Assembly (NCBI GenBank): GCA_963765205.1
Contig: CAVXVB010000009.1
Location: forward strand, 1,248,001-1,312,000
Direction: 5' to 3'
From: an uncultured Verrucomicrobiae bacterium
GTDB lineage: Bacteria; Verrucomicrobiota; Verrucomicrobiia; Opitutales; JABDGR01
Length of the DNA stretch: 64,000 nucleotides
Shown here: piece by piece, positions 37,601-43,600 of the stretch
Layout: each line of letters begins with the position of its first letter
Numbering within the stretch: the stretch's first letter is position 1
Position numbers: made by a program

Positions 37601-40600
37601 CGTGCCTGCGCTCGGCGAAGTATTGGCCGCGCTCGGCCCGGAGCAGGAAATTTTCATCGAACTGAAGTCGCGCGAATACGACGAGATTCTGGCCAAGCTC
37701 AACCGCCTGCTCGACCCGCAGGCGGCGACCGGCTTTCCCGCCGCTCGCGTCGTGTTGATGAGTTTTGACGGCACGCTTGTGCGCAAAATCAAAAAGGCGC
37801 GGCCCGCCTGGCGCGTCCTGCTGCTGCTCAACCACAAGCCCTCGCGCCACCTGTATGGGCAAATTTTGTCGGCAGTGCGCGCTAAGTTCATAGACGGCAT
37901 TGGCCAAAACCGCACCTGGGCGCTCAAGGACGAGGAATATGCCGAGTTGCGCGAGAACGGCGCAATTTTGTCGGTCTGGACGGTGGATAATCCAACGGAA
38001 GTGGCGGCGTGGAAGAAATGGGGGTTTGATTATTTGACGAGCAATCGGGCGGAAAGGATGAAGGTTGAGGGATGAAGGATGAAATTCCTGAATGCTGAAT
38101 TCTGATTACTGAATGCTCTAAAATAATTGCCTGCTGCTACCCGCGCTCGGAATTGTTCGCCAGCATTCAGCAATCGGCCTTTCCGGATTCATCCTTCATC
38201 CTTATTTTAGCCTCTGATAATCTGTTCTGTCACCACAGCCAGCGGCTCCCCCGGCGCACAATCCGCGCGAATCGCCACAAATCCGCCGCGGTGCTGATCA
38301 AACCACGGCCAGACGAGCACTTTATCCGTCGGCGGGATAGGCAGCGCGTCAATTTCCTCACGCGGGAAAAAGGCAAATTCGCCCTCGTCGCCCGTAGGCG
38401 GCAACGCCGGAAGCGTTTTTTTGCAATCGAACAAAAACATCAGCCAGTGCCCGCCGCCTTCGTAATTTTTTTCGGAGATGTAGCCGAACAGGTGCAAATC
38501 CTGTGCGGTGACGGCCAAGCCGACCTCCTCGGCGGTTTCGCGGATGGCGCACTCGAAGGGCGATTCGCCGCGGGCCATTTCCAGCTTGCCGCCGATGGGG
38601 CTCCAGCAGCCGAGGTTGGGCGCCTTGCGCCGCTTGATAAGCAGCAGCCGCCCACGCGCCTCGCGCAAAAACACCAGCACGCTGATTTTGAACGCGGTCA
38701 TTCCTTTTTTTTGAGTGTTACTTTTAGCGCGCGAATTTGCAAACTATTCGTTGAAGATGCTGTTATACGGGTATTGTATCGGCGCTAAAGCATTGAGCAT
38801 CTCGCCATTAAAGCCCAGCAATGGCGAAGGCGGAAAAACTGCGTCGCTCGAAGTTCATTACTCGGGTGAGACTTGCTTTGCGGAATACCGGAAGTAGTCG
38901 CGCAGGTTGGCCCGCTGGCCCGCGCCTTGTTTATTGGTTGGCGTATGGGATTATATTCGCAAGCGGAATCGGTTGGCCGGGTCTTGCCTGGCGGTTACCG
39001 ATCTCGCCTGGTTGACCCATTCACTGCCGACTCCGTAAGCAACCCCCCCTGCGATGTCATCGCCAGTGGAACGCCCCTCGGGATCGAATTTGGTCCAAGG
39101 ATTCTGGCAGACACACGTCTTCGACAGTCAGTGGACCACCCCAGCCCTGATTTCGCTTTTTTACGAAATATCTTGCAACCCCCTTGTTTTTTACTGGTTT
39201 AGTGTCGTTGTTATCAGGTATAGTCACCTTTCACCTCCTTCCACCATGAACTGGTCCATACATCTAATCGCTACGGCGGTATTCCTTACCAGGGAATCCC
39301 GTCGAGGTTCGTTGTGCCCCAGAATTCAAGCCCGGCAGAGCGATAATCCAATGCCTAAAGATTATCTGCAAACCGCAAATATTGGTGCATCCGGAAGTGA
39401 CAGGTCTTGAGCGATCGCTATCGTTAGCTTCGCCAACCCACTTCCCGCACGGAGGTGGGTTTTTTGTTGGTCCAATCCGCAACCCGCCTCCTTTGCCCGC
39501 TTGAATACGCTTCTTTTGCAAATCCTTTCCGTGGCTTCACCGCTGAGCCCAATTGAATCAGCCTGCGCCCGCGCCAAATCCCGCGGCCGTCCAATCCGTT
39601 TGGCTATGGCCAGGCGAGAGGGGCGACGGTGTGTGTTCTTTTGCGAAAATTGTCCGGGTCACGATTTTTATCGTGACCCGGATCGCCAGCCGGCGGCGTT
39701 ACGCCGGTAGTAAAGCCTGCGCGGCGCGTCCCTGAACTTTTTAGATCAGGCATTAGCCCCGCTCGCTTTGCCGTCTCGTCGTCTAACCAGTGCAGGATTT
39801 CGGCTTTTCACGCTGAAGATGCGGGTGCAACTCCCGTCGGGACGTTCATTTTTAAGCGTGCGTGGCGAAGCAGCAACGCAGCGGTCTGCCAGTCCGCAGT
39901 CCCGGGTGCGACTCCCGGCGCGCGCAAGTTTTGCAGCCTTGGTGTCAATAGCAGCACAGCGGACTTTTAATCCGCAAGGTGTGGGTGCAAGTCCCACAGG
40001 CTGCACGACTTTTACGCGACGTGCCCGAGCAGCAAAGGGGCTGGTCTGCAAAACCAGTGAGCGCGGGTGCAAGTCCCGTCGTCGCGTCTATTTTTAGGGG
40101 GCATGGTGTTCAACAGCAACATTCGATGTTCGCATGGTCGAGATGCGGGTGCAACTCCCGCTGCCTCCACGCTTTACACGTCCGTAGTTCCAGGGAACTG
40201 CCCGGTCTCCAAAACCAGGCGGGCAGGTGCGACCCCTGCCGGGCGTGCCAATTTTGGGAGGCTAAGCTAATCTAGTGAAAGCGCGCGGCTGAAGCCCGCG
40301 AGAGCGCGGCGCAAAACCGCGAGCCTCCACCATTTTCCGCGGGCTGGGCGAGGTCCCCGCCTGGTCTCATAAGCCACGGCGTGGCCGGTGCAACTCCGGC
40401 GCCCGCCATTTTTCTTTATCAGGCCATGGCAGAGCAGCAATGCACTCCGTTCGGGACGGAGACAGCGCCGGTGCAAGTCCGGCTGGCCTGACTTTATTAC
40501 GCAGCGGAAGACAAACAGCAGAGTCGCCACCTTGTCACGGTGGAGAGAGCGGGGGCAGCACCCGTCCGCCGCGCCCTTTTCGATCGAGGCGTCGCCAAGC

Positions 40601-43600
40601 AGCCAAGGCATCTGGCCTACACCCAGACACGCGGGGGTGAGAGTCCCTCCGCCTCGACCCTTTCCTTGCCGGGTAGCTCAACAGCAGAGTGTCCGGTTGT
40701 TACCCGGATGATGCAGGTGCGATTCCTGCCCCGGCAGCCATTAGCGGGTGGTGGGACAGAAGCAAGAGCGCCGGCTCATAGCAGGGGTCAGGCTGCACCT
40801 TATTACCTTGACAGAACCAACCTTCCCGCAAATTCTATCGATTATGCCGCGCAAACTACGCTTGGAATTCCCGGGAGCCGTTTACCACGTCATCAACCGG
40901 GGGAACTACCGCCACGACATTTTTGCCACCAGCGGGGCGCGGGCGGCTTTCATGAGTTGTGTCTGGGAGGCCTGCCAAAAATCGGGCTGGCGGCTGCACG
41001 CCTATGTGCTCATGCGCAACCATTACCACCTGGCGCTGGAAACCCCCAAAGGCAACCTGGTGGCGGGCATGCAATGGCTGCAGGCGACGTTTGCCAACCG
41101 CTTCAACCGGCTCCGCGGCGAGCGCGGGCATCTCTTTCAAGGACGCTACAAGGCTTTGCTGGTCGAACCCGGCGCGGCGCTGGGCCAGTTGTGCCACTAC
41201 ATCCACCTGAACCCCGTGCGCGCCAAAGTCGTGACCGTCGAGCGGTTGAGAAAATTCCGCGATTCCAGCTATTGGCAGCTTTGGCATCGGGCGGAACGTC
41301 CGCCTGCCCTGTGCGTGCAGACGGCGCTGCGGCAGGCGGGCGGCTTGGCCGACACCCCTGGCCGGGCATGCAGCCTACGAAAAATTTCTCGCCTGGCAGG
41401 CCGCGCACGGGCCGGTCGGGCGCAACCAGGCTTATGTGTCCCTGAGCCGGGGCTGGGTGCTGGGCAGCCCGACATTCAAGGAAAACCTGCTCAAGGAACA
41501 CTCCTTGGCCGCCGACACCCGCGCCTGGGAAACCAGCGGCAAAACCCACATCCGCCAGCGCGCATGGGACCCGCGCCCTGCGGGAGGGCTTGCACCGCTT
41601 GCGCCAGCCCGAAAAAAATCTCACCGCGGGCCACTTGGCGCAGCCGTGGAAGATTGCCTTGGCGCTGTTCTTGAAGCAAACCACCCAAGCCTCGAATCCC
41701 TGGCTCGCCCTTCATTTCGGCTCGCCCAGCCCCACCTACCTCAGCAAACTCATCTGCACCCACCGCCATGACCCCCAACTCCACCCCTTCCTCCAAAAAC
41801 TCAGGTAAAAAGGTGCAGCCTGGGCTTGCCCCTCTCTTCGGCCCCCAAACCGGTGGCGGCGCATTCAGCAGTCAAACTTACTTCACCGCCACGCCGAGCG
41901 GCAGCACCGCCTTGCCGTAAACTTCATTCAGCACCTGGGCCAGGCCGACATACATCGCGGAGAGGCCGCACCCAATGCCTTCGTAGCCGGTGACGTGCTC
42001 GAAGCCTTCGCCCATGTCCGAAAACTTGCCGAGCGCGAGCATGATAAAGAGCACAGTCAGGGTGGCGAAGACAACTTGCAGGGCGCGGCTCAAGCGCAGG
42101 GTGCCGACGAAAAGAACCGCCGTGAACAACCCCCATATCGCCAGATAGAAGCCAAACGCGGGACCGGCAGGGCCCTCGACCAAGGCTGCCATGGTTCCCG
42201 GCGAGGTAGACCCAATTTTGGGGAGAAGAATCAAAGCCACGAGGGAAAGCCAGAACATGCCATAGGAAAGAAAAGCGGTGGTGGCAAACGTGTTGCCCTT
42301 CTTCCATTCCATGATGCCCGCGATGACCTGCGCGGTGCCGCCATAAAAAATTCCCATGGCGAGAATCATGCTGTTCATTTCGTAGTAGCCGGCATTGTGC
42401 AGGTTGAGCAGCACGGTGGTCATGCCAAAGGCGAGCAGGCCAGGGGAGCGGGGTTTGCGGTCGTGTCTTTGAGCTGGGTCGCGACGGGGTCGGGCATGGG
42501 ATGAGGGAGTTTGGGGTTAGGCAGGGGGGAGGCGGGAGGATTAACTTTCCGCAGCAGGCAAGTCAAGAACAGGTCAGATGGGATGCTGTTGGGGCGGGTC
42601 AAAGGGAACGGCGGGGCGGTATTTGGCCGCCCGGAGCCAGCCCATAATACCCTTGACGAAATCCGCCCAAAGGAGCAGTTTTCACCTGTTCAGATTCAAC
42701 CCCACCCCAATCGGAGAACAGCCATGTCCACGACCCGTCGCGATTTCCTCGCCACCACCGCCACCGCTGCCGGTTTTGTCGCCACCTCCCGCTTTGCGCT
42801 CGGCCAAGCCGCGCTGGCGGCGACGCCCGCCGCCAGTCCCACGACAGCAACCCCCGCCGCCTTCACTCCCAAGTCGGCGGCCACCGCCGACTTTCTTAAA
42901 TTGATCGGTCCGGATCAATCCGCCGAACTGGTCAAACGCCTGCAGAAAACCAATTTGGATATCAAAACCAAGGGGCTGAAAACCATTGACGGACGCTCCG
43001 GCGCCGGCGGGGATTTTCTAACCGGCTATCCCTACACGGAATTCTATGACTGGGATTTATACTTTGAAAATCTTTATAATGGTTACTACGGTGTTTACCC
43101 GTATTGCTACACCAACATGAAGGAGTTCCTGAGCCGCCAGCAGGCGGACGGCTACATCAACCGCTCCCTGCACAAGCAACGTGACCGCCAGCACTTCAAG
43201 CCCTTCCTCGCCCAACTCACCGTATTGGGCGCCCTCCAGAGCAACAACGACTATGCCTGGCTGAACACTTCGCCCACGACCGCGACCGTCCCCGCAAACG
43301 GCACCTATTACAACCGGCTCAAAAAATATATTGATAAGTGGTTCAGTTACGATGGCGACGGCAACGGACTGCCGACCTGGAACTCCTGCGATGCCGCGGG
43401 CAACGACAACCAATGGAGCCGCGGCGGCCAACTCGGCGCCTTTATTGACGAAGGCGTGGATTTGGCCAGCTACCTCGTGCGCGAAATGCGGGCCATGGCC
43501 ATCATCGCCGACCACCTCGGCCAGAAAGACGACAGCAAGGCCTACACCGCCCACGCGGACCAGGTGTGCAAACTCATCAACAACGTCTTCTGGGACGAAA

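Follow-up and report, generated by a model that had tools for sequence, protein, structure and literature searches.

Composition of the locus

The window analysed here, a stretch of 64,000 nucleotides from the genome of an uncultured Verrucomicrobiae bacterium (G000, compared below with G001 from the same family and G022 from another family of the order), carries a plus-strand array of tRNA-like genes, preceded by a conserved leader region and followed by a Y1 transposase gene (Table 1). With default settings ARAGORN calls seven tRNA genes, arranged head to tail at 39772-40740 and specific for Glu-UUC, Gly-GCC, Lys-UUU, Cys-GCA, Trp-CCA, Pro-CGG and Asn-GUU. All seven have the T-arm GTGCRA, giving a T-loop UGCRA with G at position 55; of the 48 ARAGORN calls made elsewhere in this 4.02-Mb genome, 47 have GTTCRA (UUCRA), the exception being a doubtful Val-GAC on contig C5. 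Each of the seven anticodons is also found in the canonical set of the genome, and so the first-pass annotation, which had described seven G55 tRNA genes duplicating the housekeeping set, was right in this respect.

The array is, however, larger than the seven units then counted. At 90% thresholds ARAGORN finds four more (Ala-CGC, Phe-GAA, Met-CAU and Val-UAC), and an eroded Asp-GUC unit, missed by ARAGORN even at a 70% threshold, is recognisable only through its homology to G001, making 12 tightly packed units and a fragment, with G at position 55 in all 12 and A18 G19 in most. The Rfam tRNA model returns five array units at its gathering score with default filters, as had been reported, and seven with laxer filters, the additions being Pro-CGG and Val-UAC; Trp-CCA is without a match at E<=10. 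The same model aligns the D-loop CAGCA to its own UGGUA, and therefore G18 is replaced by A18 while G19 is kept.

Table 1. Features of the array locus, with positions in the window.
Feature	Position	Strand	Description
Promoter-like block, 5' of leader ORF	39166..39245	+	TTGCAA at 39173, TATAGT at 39219; nearly invariant between G000 and G001
Leader ORF	39246..39410	+	54 codons and stop; all 20 amino acids; last codons (GGA AGU GA.) are switch region R1
Switch region R1	39393..39400	+	GGAAGTGA; complementary to R2, paired with R2 in minimum-energy fold
Switch region R2	39437..39445	+	CCCACTTCC; pairs with R1 (antiterminator) or R3 (terminator)
Switch region R3 and T-run	39451..39465	+	GGAGGTGGG; with R2 an intrinsic terminator; conserved in 47 aligned relatives
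Switch region R4	39485..39491	+	CGCCTCC; pairs with R3 when R1:R2 forms (minimum-energy fold)
up2, conserved structured RNA element	39531..39646	+	Ends in GGUGUGUGUUCUUUU
Hairpin between up2 and first tRNA	39652..39682	+	Stem preserved despite letter changes in G001
tRNA-Glu(UUC)	39772..39845	+	T-loop UGCAACU, D-loop AACCAGUGCA, base after acceptor stem U; ARAGORN, Rfam 44.1 bits
tRNA-Gly(GCC)	39856..39926	+	T-loop UGCGACU, D-loop AAGCAGCAA, base after acceptor stem A; ARAGORN, Rfam 51.9 bits
tRNA-Lys(UUU)	39933..40006	+	T-loop UGCAAGU, D-loop CAAUAGCA; ARAGORN, Rfam 57.9 bits
tRNA-Cys(GCA)	40015..40088	+	T-loop UGCAAGU, D-loop GAGCAGCAAA, base after acceptor stem U; ARAGORN, Rfam 56.6 bits
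tRNA-Ala(CGC)	40097..40170	+	G3:U70, G55, G:G mismatch in anticodon stem; ARAGORN at 90%, Rfam only 18.5 bits
tRNA-Trp(CCA)	40178..40250	+	T-loop UGCGACC, 4-nt D-loop CAGG, CCA encoded; ARAGORN
tRNA-Phe(GAA)	40257..40332	+	T-loop CGCAAAA (C54 G55), CCA encoded; ARAGORN at 90%
Met(CAU)-like unit	40338..40408	+	G55, weak D-arm, 1-72 unpaired; ARAGORN at 90% threshold only
tRNA-Pro(CGG)	40420..40492	+	T-loop UGCAAGU, D-loop GAGCAGCAA; ARAGORN, Rfam 52.4 bits
Eroded Asp(GUC) unit	40499..40575 (approximate)	+	T-loop GGCAGCA (54, 58 changed), two stem pairs broken; 81% identity to G001 Asp unit
Val(UAC) unit	40584..40660	+	T-loop UGAGAGU (C56 to A), C33 for U33 as in G001; Rfam 45.9 bits
tRNA-Asn(GUU)	40667..40740	+	T-loop UGCGAUU, D-loop AACAGCA, CCA encoded; top score, Rfam 61.7 bits
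Possible 5' fragment of thirteenth unit (CAU-like loop)	40745..40788	+	Read by eye; ends at left repeat of Y1 unit; weak
Separate Y1 (IS200/RAYT-like) unit	40789..41822	+	20-nt inverted repeats 40789-40808 and 41803-41822; ATG 40844; gene frameshifted in assembly

A truncated member of a mobile family

Arrays of the same kind were found in relatives, as the first reading of this genome had stated: GTGCRA occurs in 19 of 19 default-threshold tRNAs in G001, situated on two contig ends, and in 14 of 16 in G022. The arrays of relatives extend to about 16-26 units and then continue into HNH, sigma-70, RtcB or TROVE/Ro60-like genes. The notion of a mobile, near-complete second set of supernumerary tRNA genes is supported, and so is the suspicion that the copy in G000 is a remnant. 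At the point occupied here by the possible fragment of a thirteenth unit, the G001 array runs on through further units, among them Pro, Gln, Met and Tyr. Among 401 genomes sampled from the phylum, five have the triple-G55 pattern (reversed control, 0), and G55 arrays lie on at least 134 genome stretches from many phyla and on 42 viral-contig stretches. The array thus belongs, in truncated form, to a known class of long tRNA arrays (L-arrays), for which one study describes horizontal spread, HNH and rtcB neighbours and induction by translational stress, as well as charging of 23 of 26 operon tRNAs in Anabaena (PMC8421152). The experimentally studied Anabaena array differs from that described here in having G55 in only one of 24 ARAGORN calls, on whose charging the text of that study is silent.

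The gene 3' of the array matches Pfam Y1_Tnp (E 1.1e-11), and the first-pass annotation had linked the two by position. That the array is cargo of this transposase and moves with it has adjacency in G000 only in its favour, and we consider it very improbable and have rejected it. The inverted repeats, with arms that are 95% complementary, surround the Y1 gene alone; a tblastn search with Y1 against the array loci L016-L199 gave no match; and in genomes of the same genus without the array, relatives of the gene occupy other sites. The gene is single-copy in G000, copies of its repeat arms occur elsewhere in the genome, and a DNA contig of run X1 has one base fewer at 41359 and another fewer at 41570, both within the Y1 unit. 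Most likely, the Y1 unit cut the array after Asn, the remainder being absent from the assembly.

A leader region with predicted alternative folds

Since a consensus promoter scan gave no call within the promoter-like block, its role as a promoter is a putative one. The leader frame is open for 53 codons up to R1 in 44 of 45 distinct relatives (the other two frames in 1/45 and 2/45), and of the 44 distinct leader peptides, 24 contain all 20 amino acids, compared with 1.0% of control windows; in most relatives the stop codon falls 15 nt past the start of R1. Downstream there is a terminator-like site at 39435-39461 with a TTTTTT tail. The minimum-energy fold of 39385-39500 combines R1:R2 with R3:R4 (z -4.77, a value reached by none of 200 shuffles), RNAalifold pairs R3 with R4 across 47 sequences, and R1, R2 and R3 co-vary (T:A:T to C:G:C) in five of 54 matched sequences, 15 of 69 sequences lying outside the search pattern. 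These patterns suggest that a small translated leader ORF probably switches the array on when protein synthesis falters.

Between the switch and the tRNA genes, up2 is an element without a match in Rfam 15 that also stands 5' of tRNA-Glu in ten other array loci and is present in 61 metagenome contigs, in 51 of which only G55 tRNAs lie 3' of it. Its predicted structure includes 11 pairs with double changes, and none of 500 shuffles reaches the observed covariation score. Weighing against an array under control of the leader, up2 has a U-run of its own at its end and might act as a further terminator, leaving the array unexpressed.

We favour, with some reservation, the explanation that a horizontally acquired spare array of the L type, with an A18-G55 elbow, switched by its leader and cut by Y1, has its regulated front portion at 39166-40788. 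The parts follow in the order of promoter-like block, leader ORF of 54 codons, terminator/antiterminator, up2 and 12 tRNA units redundant with the housekeeping set. In healthy translation the ribosome would translate the leader ORF to its last codons and mask R1, leaving R2 to pair with R3 so that transcription stops. Any slowly decoded codon would stall the ribosome upstream, allowing R1:R2 and R3:R4 to form, and the resulting read-through into the array would deliver a burst of reserve tRNAs.

Integrity and decoding capacity

Judged by their sequence, about eight of the 12 units seem fit for use, whereas Ala and Met are open to doubt, Val is without C56 and Asp is eroded. Lesions affect four of the 12, namely the Asp T-loop, Val C56A, the Ala stem mismatch (pair 32-40 having changed from GC to GG relative to G001) and the Met D-arm; the G001 stretch homologous to the Met-like unit gives no ARAGORN tRNA at the 90% threshold. 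A further point against the favoured explanation is the base after the acceptor stem, which differs from that of the housekeeping isoacceptor in Gly (A against U) and Glu (U against G). The Asp, Val and Ala lesions are specific to G000 and would fit a decaying relic, that is, an array out of use in this genome whose units are pseudo-tRNAs. The truncation by the Y1 unit points the same way, as do the lack of any HNH, sigma, RtcB or TROVE companion 3' of the array, the lack of any RtcB or TROVE/Ro60-like match in the whole G000 assembly (92% complete) and BLAST searches for the array that gave no match in six same-genus genomes. We nevertheless think this unlikely. When 205 stem pairs were compared across the ten units orthologous to G001, 20 had changed, of which seven were compensatory, nine one-sided but kept and only four broken, so that 16 of 20 remain paired, although the count uses the predicted structure of G001 and is therefore biased towards pairs kept there. 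Phe, 96% identical to its G001 counterpart, has such a compensatory change at 7-66. Moreover, the leader ORF remains open and contains all 20 residue types, the fold of the switch matches that in relatives, and up2 is 94.7% identical to the G001 copy against approximately 88% for the array.

Another view is that these are non-decoding look-alikes that, instead of being adaptors in translation, would draw off tRNA-cutting toxins (as decoys or sponges) or associate with Ro60-like proteins. TROVE/Ro60-like genes are indeed located within or next to related arrays, the anticodon loop is unusual in certain units, for example in Val with C33 in both G000 and G001, and a sponge role for operon tRNAs is raised by the authors of PMC8421152. 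We regard this as improbable, given that U33 and a purine at 37 are found in ten of 11 ARAGORN-found units, that Ala retains G3:U70 (read by eye) and that the base after the acceptor stem obeys the usual identity rules in ten of 12 units. A leader containing all 20 amino acids is also most sensible if its product restores decoding.

The A18-G55 elbow

Over 1,392 tRNAs from arrays and phages the two loops of the elbow co-vary, the D-loop having AG where the T-loop has G55 and GG where it has U55, and this part of the original proposal is sustained. Among 912 distinct tRNAs from 134 listed genome loci, AG without GG accompanies G55 in 555 of 659 cases and GG accompanies U55 in 247 of 252; the corresponding figures for 483 viral-contig tRNAs are 315/354 and 118/127, and in one cyanobacterial array G55 has AG without GG in four of four, and any other letter at 55 has GG in 21 of 22. 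These paired changes indicate that the corner of the spare tRNAs is held by a predicted A18-G55 contact, an alternative to the textbook G18-U55 that recurs in more than 1,000 tRNAs from mobile arrays and large phages, and of which we found no printed description.

Selection may have favoured the swap because it makes the spare set orthogonal to readers of the canonical elbow, such as enzymes acting on U55 or U54 and T-loop-cutting toxins; this is the purpose proposed in the first-pass annotation, and the set would therefore outlast attacks by which the tRNAs of the host are put out of action. In favour, pseudouridylation is impossible at G55, and TruB is present in the host; tRNAs with G55 occur mainly in mobile arrays and large phages and not among the 48 housekeeping calls; and RtcB, an RNA-repair ligase, and Ro60-like genes accompany the arrays, as would suit conditions in which tRNAs are damaged. 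tRNA-cleaving toxins with cut sites in the T-loop are known. Yet there is no pointer to a T-loop toxin in G000, G55 and U55 tRNAs are mixed in many arrays, and the exposed G19-C56, the outer pair on which most elbow readers stack according to a review (PMC4810234), is retained in 97% of G55 tRNAs. With G19 and C56 kept, the altered elbow would escape only factors that require U55 or G18 itself, and we doubt that orthogonality of this kind was what was selected.

Somewhat less doubtful, though still tentative, is that A18-G55 is a neutral isosteric variant, fixed by descent in phage and array lineages and hitch-hiking without an adaptive role. Individual genes within arrays that are canonical in other respects carry the swap, which must therefore be tolerated, and the Rfam consensus of the tymovirus tRNA-like element has the same letters (CAGU in the D-loop, UGCAACU in the T-loop) with an elbow nearly identical to that of tRNA, according to the same review (PMC4810234). 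Against neutrality, whole arrays of 20-30 isoacceptors are nearly all G55, a state that requires either numerous double changes in parallel or strong maintenance, and housekeeping sets such as that of G000 do not have the swap. For the leader-switched spare array that we prefer, our leading guess is that A18-G55 would provide a self-sufficient elbow, independent of modification at U55 and G18 and offering no substrate to enzymes that act on U55.

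The array and its elbow

Default-threshold ARAGORN finds seven tRNA genes in the window, all folding as ordinary cloverleaves (see the table of features). Run over the whole genome that holds the window (G000; 12 contigs, 4.02 Mb), the program returned 55 tRNAs, with GTGCRA in the T-arm of all seven arrayed tRNAs and GTTCRA in 47 of the 48 others, the lone exception outside the array being a doubtful Val-GAC call on contig C5. None of the 20 amino acids is missing from the canonical set, nor is any array anticodon; the array is supernumerary in that its seven default-threshold anticodons all recur among those 48 tRNAs. 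The first-pass annotation had described seven head-to-tail tRNAs with G55 that duplicate the housekeeping set, and both the ARAGORN calls and the whole-genome comparison of anticodons bear this out. Elsewhere in the genome, on contig C8 (444774-444861), there is an 88-nt Pro(UGG) tRNA with a canonical GTTCGA T-loop and a long variable arm, which is unusual for a proline anticodon.

When the ARAGORN thresholds were lowered to 90%, four extra units appeared, and together with an Asp unit seen by homology the array comes to 12 units in about 1 kb, with a possible fragment of a further one. All 12 have G at position 55 and depart from the canonical combination of G18 G19 with U54 U55 C56. The Rfam alignment places the array D-loop CAGCA on the UGGUA of the model, so that G18 is replaced by A18 with G19 kept, alongside the replacement of U55 by G55 with C56 kept. 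Five units reach the Rfam tRNA gathering score with default filters and seven with laxer filters (Pro-CGG and Val-UAC among them), and the Trp unit has no match to the Rfam tRNA model even with the laxer filters. All seven default units have an acceptor stem of 7 bp, a T-stem of 5 bp and an anticodon loop of 7 nt that includes U33 and R37; at the 90% threshold U33 and R37 are found in 10 of 11, the exception being the Val unit. Its C33, in place of the near-universal U33, is shared with the Val unit of G001, a relative from another genus of the same family (locus L017), and the oddity is therefore conserved. We judge about 8 of the 12 units to be intact. The spacers are all short, and in 8 of 11 cases a run of at least three T lies a few bases past the tRNA (39846-40666; the genome has 60% G+C), which may be a processing or pausing signal. 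Four DNA runs confirmed the window sequence in short contigs, and a diverged relative also showed up. A search for RNA runs that contain the array listed none.

Features of the array and its surroundings, in window coordinates
Feature	Position	Strand	Detection	Remarks
Repeats of about 30-50 nt	37267-37316 and 38051-38085			Recur by the dozen, nearly identical, in same-genus genomes (many in G110 and G129)
Region ahead of the array	39166-39491			Nearly invariant promoter-like block, ORF, then four short complementary regions
Leader ORF	39246-39410			54 codons
R1	39393-39400			Inside the last ORF codons
Intrinsic terminator	39435-39461		Predicted	R2:R3 and T-run
R2	39437-39445
R3	39451-39459			Followed by TTTTTT
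R4	39485-39491
up2	~39531-39646			Conserved structured RNA between putative attenuator and array; 94.7% identical to G001
Glu-UUC, Gly-GCC, Lys-UUU, Cys-GCA, Trp-CCA, Pro-CGG, Asn-GUU	39772-40740	+	ARAGORN, default threshold
Ala-CGC			ARAGORN, 90%	Array unit; G3:U70 (read by eye); G:G mismatch in anticodon stem
Phe-GAA			ARAGORN, 90%	Array unit; T-loop CGCAAAA
Met-CAU-like unit			ARAGORN, 90%	Array unit
Asp-GUC	~40499-40575		Homology only	T-loop GGCAGCA
Val-UAC	40584-40660		ARAGORN, 90%	T-loop UGAGAGU (C56 lost); C33
Further unit	40745-40788			Possible 5' fragment
Inverted repeats, 20 nt	40789-40808 and 41803-41822			Enclose the Y1 gene only
Y1 gene	from ATG at 40844		Pfam	Y1_Tnp domain (PF01797)

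The units were compared with those of G001 for signs of constraint. Across ten orthologous units and 205 stem pairs, 20 pairs differ, a count biased by the use of the G001 structure: 7 are compensatory double changes, 9 are one-sided and preserve pairing, and 4 are broken in G000 (two in Asp, one in Gly and one in Ala). Compensatory changes such as that of pair 7-66 in the Phe unit, from C:G to U:A, speak for upkeep of the cloverleaves since the two genomes split, in one lineage at least. The nucleotide next to the acceptor stem on its 3' side follows the usual bacterial tRNA identity rules in 10 of the 12 units, and is unlike that of the housekeeping isoacceptors in Gly (A) and Glu (U).

Distribution of the elbow swap

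In one genome for each of 185,579 species we looked for three T-arms of the G55 type, spaced as tRNAs are, and found at least 134 stretches with this pattern. Among the matches listed, most are from Verrucomicrobiota, with others from Planctomycetota, Myxococcota, Gemmatimonadota, Latescibacterota, Proteobacteria, Actinobacteria, Cyanobacteria and further phyla; the same pattern occurs in 42 stretches of viral contigs, many from genomes of 80-340 kb. The D-loop is the informative part of this result, because the loci were selected for G55 and not for the D-loop. Among the matches listed, the genome loci hold 912 distinct tRNAs; 555 of the 659 with G55 have AG without GG in the D-loop, against GG in 247 of the 252 with U55. 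The 483 distinct tRNAs of viral contigs divide in the same manner (G55, 354, of which 315 have AG without GG; U55, 127, of which 118 have GG). The co-variation of D-loop and T-loop proposed in the first-pass annotation is thus upheld far beyond this genome. In the sample of sequences printed, the cases of G55 with GG mostly read AGGAGCA, that is, G15 G16 followed by A18 G19. The two kinds can also stand side by side: one cyanobacterial array has AG in all four of its G55 tRNAs and GG in 21 of 22 others (21 with U55, one with A54 U55). Across the G55 tRNAs the rest of the T-loop is kept (U54 in 92%, C56 in 97%, A58 in 95%). On this sequence evidence we take the elbow swap to be a real and widespread class, and a property of the wider array family.

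G55 is used by every amino-acid class in the G55-rich arrays. In arrays with at least 70% G55 (L023-L198 of our collected loci, among the matches listed), U55 is kept most often by Met (9 of 21 in bacterial and 13 of 21 in viral arrays), and tRNAs for Ser hardly occur (1 and 3, compared with 66 and 47 for Leu). A further variant, with T-loop AGCRU, has G55 together with a swap of U54-A58 to A54-U58, and is found in 36 of the 912 distinct array tRNAs (loci L023-L156, among the matches listed); in the per-locus listing, Phe and Ile calls are most often neither GTGCRA nor GTTCRA, and may be of this type. A lone tRNA-Lys(UUU) in another genome (G152; L019:6828-6902), with T-loop UUUAAAU and D-loop AAUCGCCA, is neither canonical nor of the A18-G55 kind.

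We take as our basis of comparison the elbow of canonical elongator tRNAs, made of G18-Psi55, G19-C56 and T54-A58 as a review describes it (PMC4810234). The array units have the same cloverleaf, a 7-nt T-loop with U54, C56, R57 and A58, the G19-C56 pair and the same anticodon-loop rules, but differ in having G at position 55 and A at position 18, so that neither Psi55 nor Gm18 is possible. The same letters occur in the tymovirus valine-accepting tRNA-like structure (RF00233), whose Rfam consensus reads CAGU in the counterpart of the D-loop and GGGUGCAACUCCC in the T-arm; the array tRNAs score against this family below threshold, at up to 32.6 bits. We infer that the tymovirus letters correspond to positions 18/19 and 55/56. 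The element differs in belonging to the 3' UTR of a plant RNA virus and in its pseudoknotted acceptor arm, and is neither a free tRNA nor bacterial, but its elbow is described as nearly identical to that of tRNA (PMC4810234). Because the same letters stand in this consensus, an A18-G55 elbow is, by analogy, structurally plausible.

Relatives, companion genes and the Y1 insertion

BLAST searches with the array gave matches in 9 of 201 genomes of the order, G000 included, and only two of the others hold true arrays, namely G001 (84-88% identity) and G022, from another family (74-83%). Six same-genus genomes (50-92% complete) gave no match. The triple-G55 T-arm pattern occurs in 5 of 401 sampled genomes of the phylum, with none in the reversed control. 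This patchy distribution, with 0 of 6 same-genus genomes positive and 88% identity to another genus, is consistent with horizontal transfer. The flanking genes on both sides are ordinary chromosomal ones (glycoside hydrolases, GDPD, satP/yaaH, chorismate synthase and an ABC-F protein), and the two flanks are not adjacent in the same-genus genomes.

The G001 array is spread over two contig ends, where all 19 default-threshold tRNAs have G55 and the 90% threshold gives 25 units, in the order Glu Gly Lys Cys Ala, contig break, Trp Phe Asp Val Asn Pro Gln Met Tyr Thr Leu Leu Ile Thr His Arg Arg Arg Ile Thr. G022 has 16 tRNAs, 14 of them with G55 and all with an encoded CCA. Genes for an HNH endonuclease, a sigma-70-type factor and RtcB lie 3' of the array in G001; in G022 a TROVE (Ro60-like) gene stands within the array and is followed by HNH and sigma genes. 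By tblastn, relatives of these HNH, TROVE and RtcB proteins adjoin G55 arrays in about 45, 20 and 20 of the loci searched, respectively, viral contigs included. No Y-RNA families of Rfam were found beside the TROVE genes.

Set against the order of units in G001, the window array is the first part and ends after Asn. A search for the missing half yielded 42 hairpins of the G55 T-arm type in G000; nine cluster, all in the array, six other candidates gave no tRNA at an ARAGORN threshold of 85%, and no further G55 tRNAs were found elsewhere in the genome. There is no HNH gene between 24 and 55 kb of the window and no match to RtcB or TROVE in G000 (92% complete); the HNH gene is lost along with the missing half of the array. 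Two earlier suggestions, that relatives carry arrays of the same kind and that the copy here may be a remnant, agree with these results.

The array had also been linked to the neighbouring Y1 transposase gene, and here our results contradict the earlier reading. As in REP-associated and IS200-type elements, the gene encodes a Y1_Tnp domain and is flanked by inverted repeats with an arm that recurs in G000, where the protein itself is single-copy; the difference is that the array lies outside the ends of the element. The Y1 protein has no tblastn match in the array loci searched (L016-L199), and its relatives sit at other places in same-genus genomes that lack the array. We therefore reject the view that the Y1 element is what moves the array; it inserted independently, and the array stops there. 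Its frameshifts in the window may be assembly errors, since a DNA contig from one run (X1) lacks one base at each of 41359 and 41570. The short repeats at the upstream end of our table look like REP-type sequences, in keeping with the Y1 (RAYT-like) gene found here.

A proposed leader-peptide switch and a structured RNA

Homology between G000 and G001 begins not at tRNA-Glu but, in the alignment, some 600 nt upstream of it. The minimum-energy fold of 39385-39500 pairs R1 with R2 and R3 with R4 (-49.4 kcal/mol; z -4.77; none of 200 shuffles did as well). For comparison of the leader we used 61 metagenome contigs recovered by a motif search with up2, the structured RNA between the switch and the first tRNA. 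Of 45 distinct sequences, 44 keep the frame of R1 (GGA-AGU-GG) open over 53 codons, while the other two frames are open in only 1 and 2, and in most relatives the leader stop lies 15 nt past the start of R1. R1, R2 and R3 change jointly, from T:A:T to C:G:C, in 5 of the 54 sequences that fit the pattern; 15 of 69 do not fit it. The alignment of the 330-nt upstream region was too ragged, and RNAalifold returned only the R3:R4 helix. A 118-aa ORF (39054-39410) was considered as a protein gene and set aside, as its homology to G001 begins only at about 39166 and it has no Pfam match; the 54-codon leader is preferred.

The composition of the leader peptides is distinctive. Of 44 distinct peptides, otherwise widely different in sequence, 24 include the full 20 amino acids and another 10 lack just one; in a control of 20,000 windows, each 53 residues long and taken from long ORFs of G000, the shares are 1.0% and 5.4%, respectively. 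The peptide of the window contains all 20. The region presents a short ORF kept by selection, and a terminator with an alternative pairing that excludes it and has R1 in the last codons; the correspondence between leader codons and what is sensed takes a variant form, embracing all amino acids and not one. In the attenuators of amino-acid operons (trpL, hisL and leuL), translation of a leader ORF decides between an antiterminator and a terminator with its U-run. The window shares with them a short ORF and the prospect that position on the RNA chooses between the two structures, but differs in that its leader samples all 20 amino acids with no enrichment of a single residue, the gated genes are tRNAs, and the end of the ORF is itself the first strand of the switch. 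The simplest reading of the leader region would be ribosome-mediated attenuation. A ribosome reaching the leader stop would cover R1, the terminator would form and transcription would end; a ribosome stalled anywhere earlier would leave R1 free, and transcription would run on. This reading fits the induction of L-arrays by translational stress that has been published (PMC8421152).

Conservation of up2 relative to G001 exceeds that of the tRNAs. It precedes tRNA-Glu in 10 other array loci, and on 51 of the 61 metagenome contigs ARAGORN calls tRNAs after it in the same orientation, every one with G55, the series opening with Glu-UUC in 35; it was found on no viral contig. In 64 sequences, 95.5% of cells pair (86.2% in shuffles) and 11 pairs show double changes, scores reached by 0 of 500 shuffles; the support is located in a variable hairpin and the helix that encloses it, and comes from covariation, since the single-sequence fold is no more stable than shuffles (z -0.23). 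In Rfam, up2 has no family, and array, leader and up2 match none except tRNA and chance cross-hits. A sigma-54 promoter at the start of up2 was rejected, its spacing, checked by eye, being a misfit. The RNA ends in a U-run, and could form a second checkpoint. Many related arrays (L067:1200-1290, with similar sequences in L073, L102, L018 and L023) carry another conserved structured stretch directly before tRNA-Glu, with an outer stem CGCGCGG/CCGCGCG around a small hairpin, followed by a T-run; it is absent from G000 and G001.

Discussion

Dense tRNA arrays of this kind have precedents. The L-arrays are long, horizontally spread tRNA operons such as the trn operon on plasmid delta of Anabaena/Nostoc sp. 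PCC 7120 (Santamaria-Gomez et al. 2021, PMC8421152), and that study already lists Verrucomicrobia among the phyla that have them, describes the kind of array, its HNH/rtcB neighbourhood and a role in stress, and reports 23 of the 26 operon tRNAs of Anabaena to be charged. The window array resembles these, and the 'tRNA array units' of Tran et al. 2016 (PMC4758250), in its closely packed tRNA genes, all on one strand and redundant with the housekeeping set, in its patchy distribution, in the HNH endonuclease and rtcB genes near its relatives and in a proposed role in translational stress. There are also clear differences. Nearly every unit here has A18-G55, whereas of the 24 ARAGORN calls in the Anabaena operon a single one, Glu-CUC, shows G55, and while that operon is controlled by direct repeats in its promoter (PMC8421152), control here is apparently by a leader-peptide attenuator and a structured RNA. 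The threshold of Tran et al. is 20 or more genes, at 2 or more per kb; the 12 units here fall short of that number, and with 12 units and a fragment in about 1.0 kb they reach the density. Judged by its sequence and order, the window array is best described as a shortened member of the L-array kind that has retained its regulatory front end. The words T-loop, D-loop, G18, U55 and G55 are absent from the main texts of both papers, the supplements of which may list tRNA sequences, and our search of the literature outside subscription papers and supplements turned up neither A18-G55 tRNAs nor a leader-peptide attenuator ahead of tRNA genes.

The array would probably supply reserve tRNAs when decoding fails. 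As for G55 itself, TruB is present in G000, so G55 tRNAs are by definition out of reach of U55 chemistry. Most elbow readers use the exposed pair G19-C56 (PMC4810234), and this pair is kept in the array tRNAs. We rank first, among possible purposes, an elbow that is self-sufficient and independent of enzymes, then a neutral isosteric variant, and last a protection from attack on U55 or the T-loop. Taken as a whole, the following picture is a tentative one that we think could well be wrong: A18-G55 may be a second natural tRNA architecture of reserve sets, workable without the enzymes that act on U55 and G18 and beyond the reach of these and of toxins, with a leader that covers all 20 amino acids releasing the set upon any failure of decoding and with up2 as a second checkpoint.

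Reviews regard Psi55 as universally conserved (PMC4810234) and place G18-Psi55 in an invariant core, but more than 1,000 natural tRNAs here carry a tightly co-varying A18-G55 instead. These tRNAs are concentrated in mobile and phage sets, and would present tRNA structural biology with a second design; to those who study tRNA-targeting defence and counter-defence they offer a concrete hypothesis for why mobile tRNA sets differ from those of the host. The window itself is a shortened example, and the value lies in the array family, to which it adds a family-specific switch and the up2 RNA. The combination of a leader containing all 20 amino acids with a terminator switch suggests a way in which a cell could sense a general failure of decoding and answer it with more tRNA. 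This would extend the logic of attenuation from amino-acid operons to tRNA genes, and makes the leader switch a candidate mechanism for the induction of L-arrays by translational stress that has already been shown.
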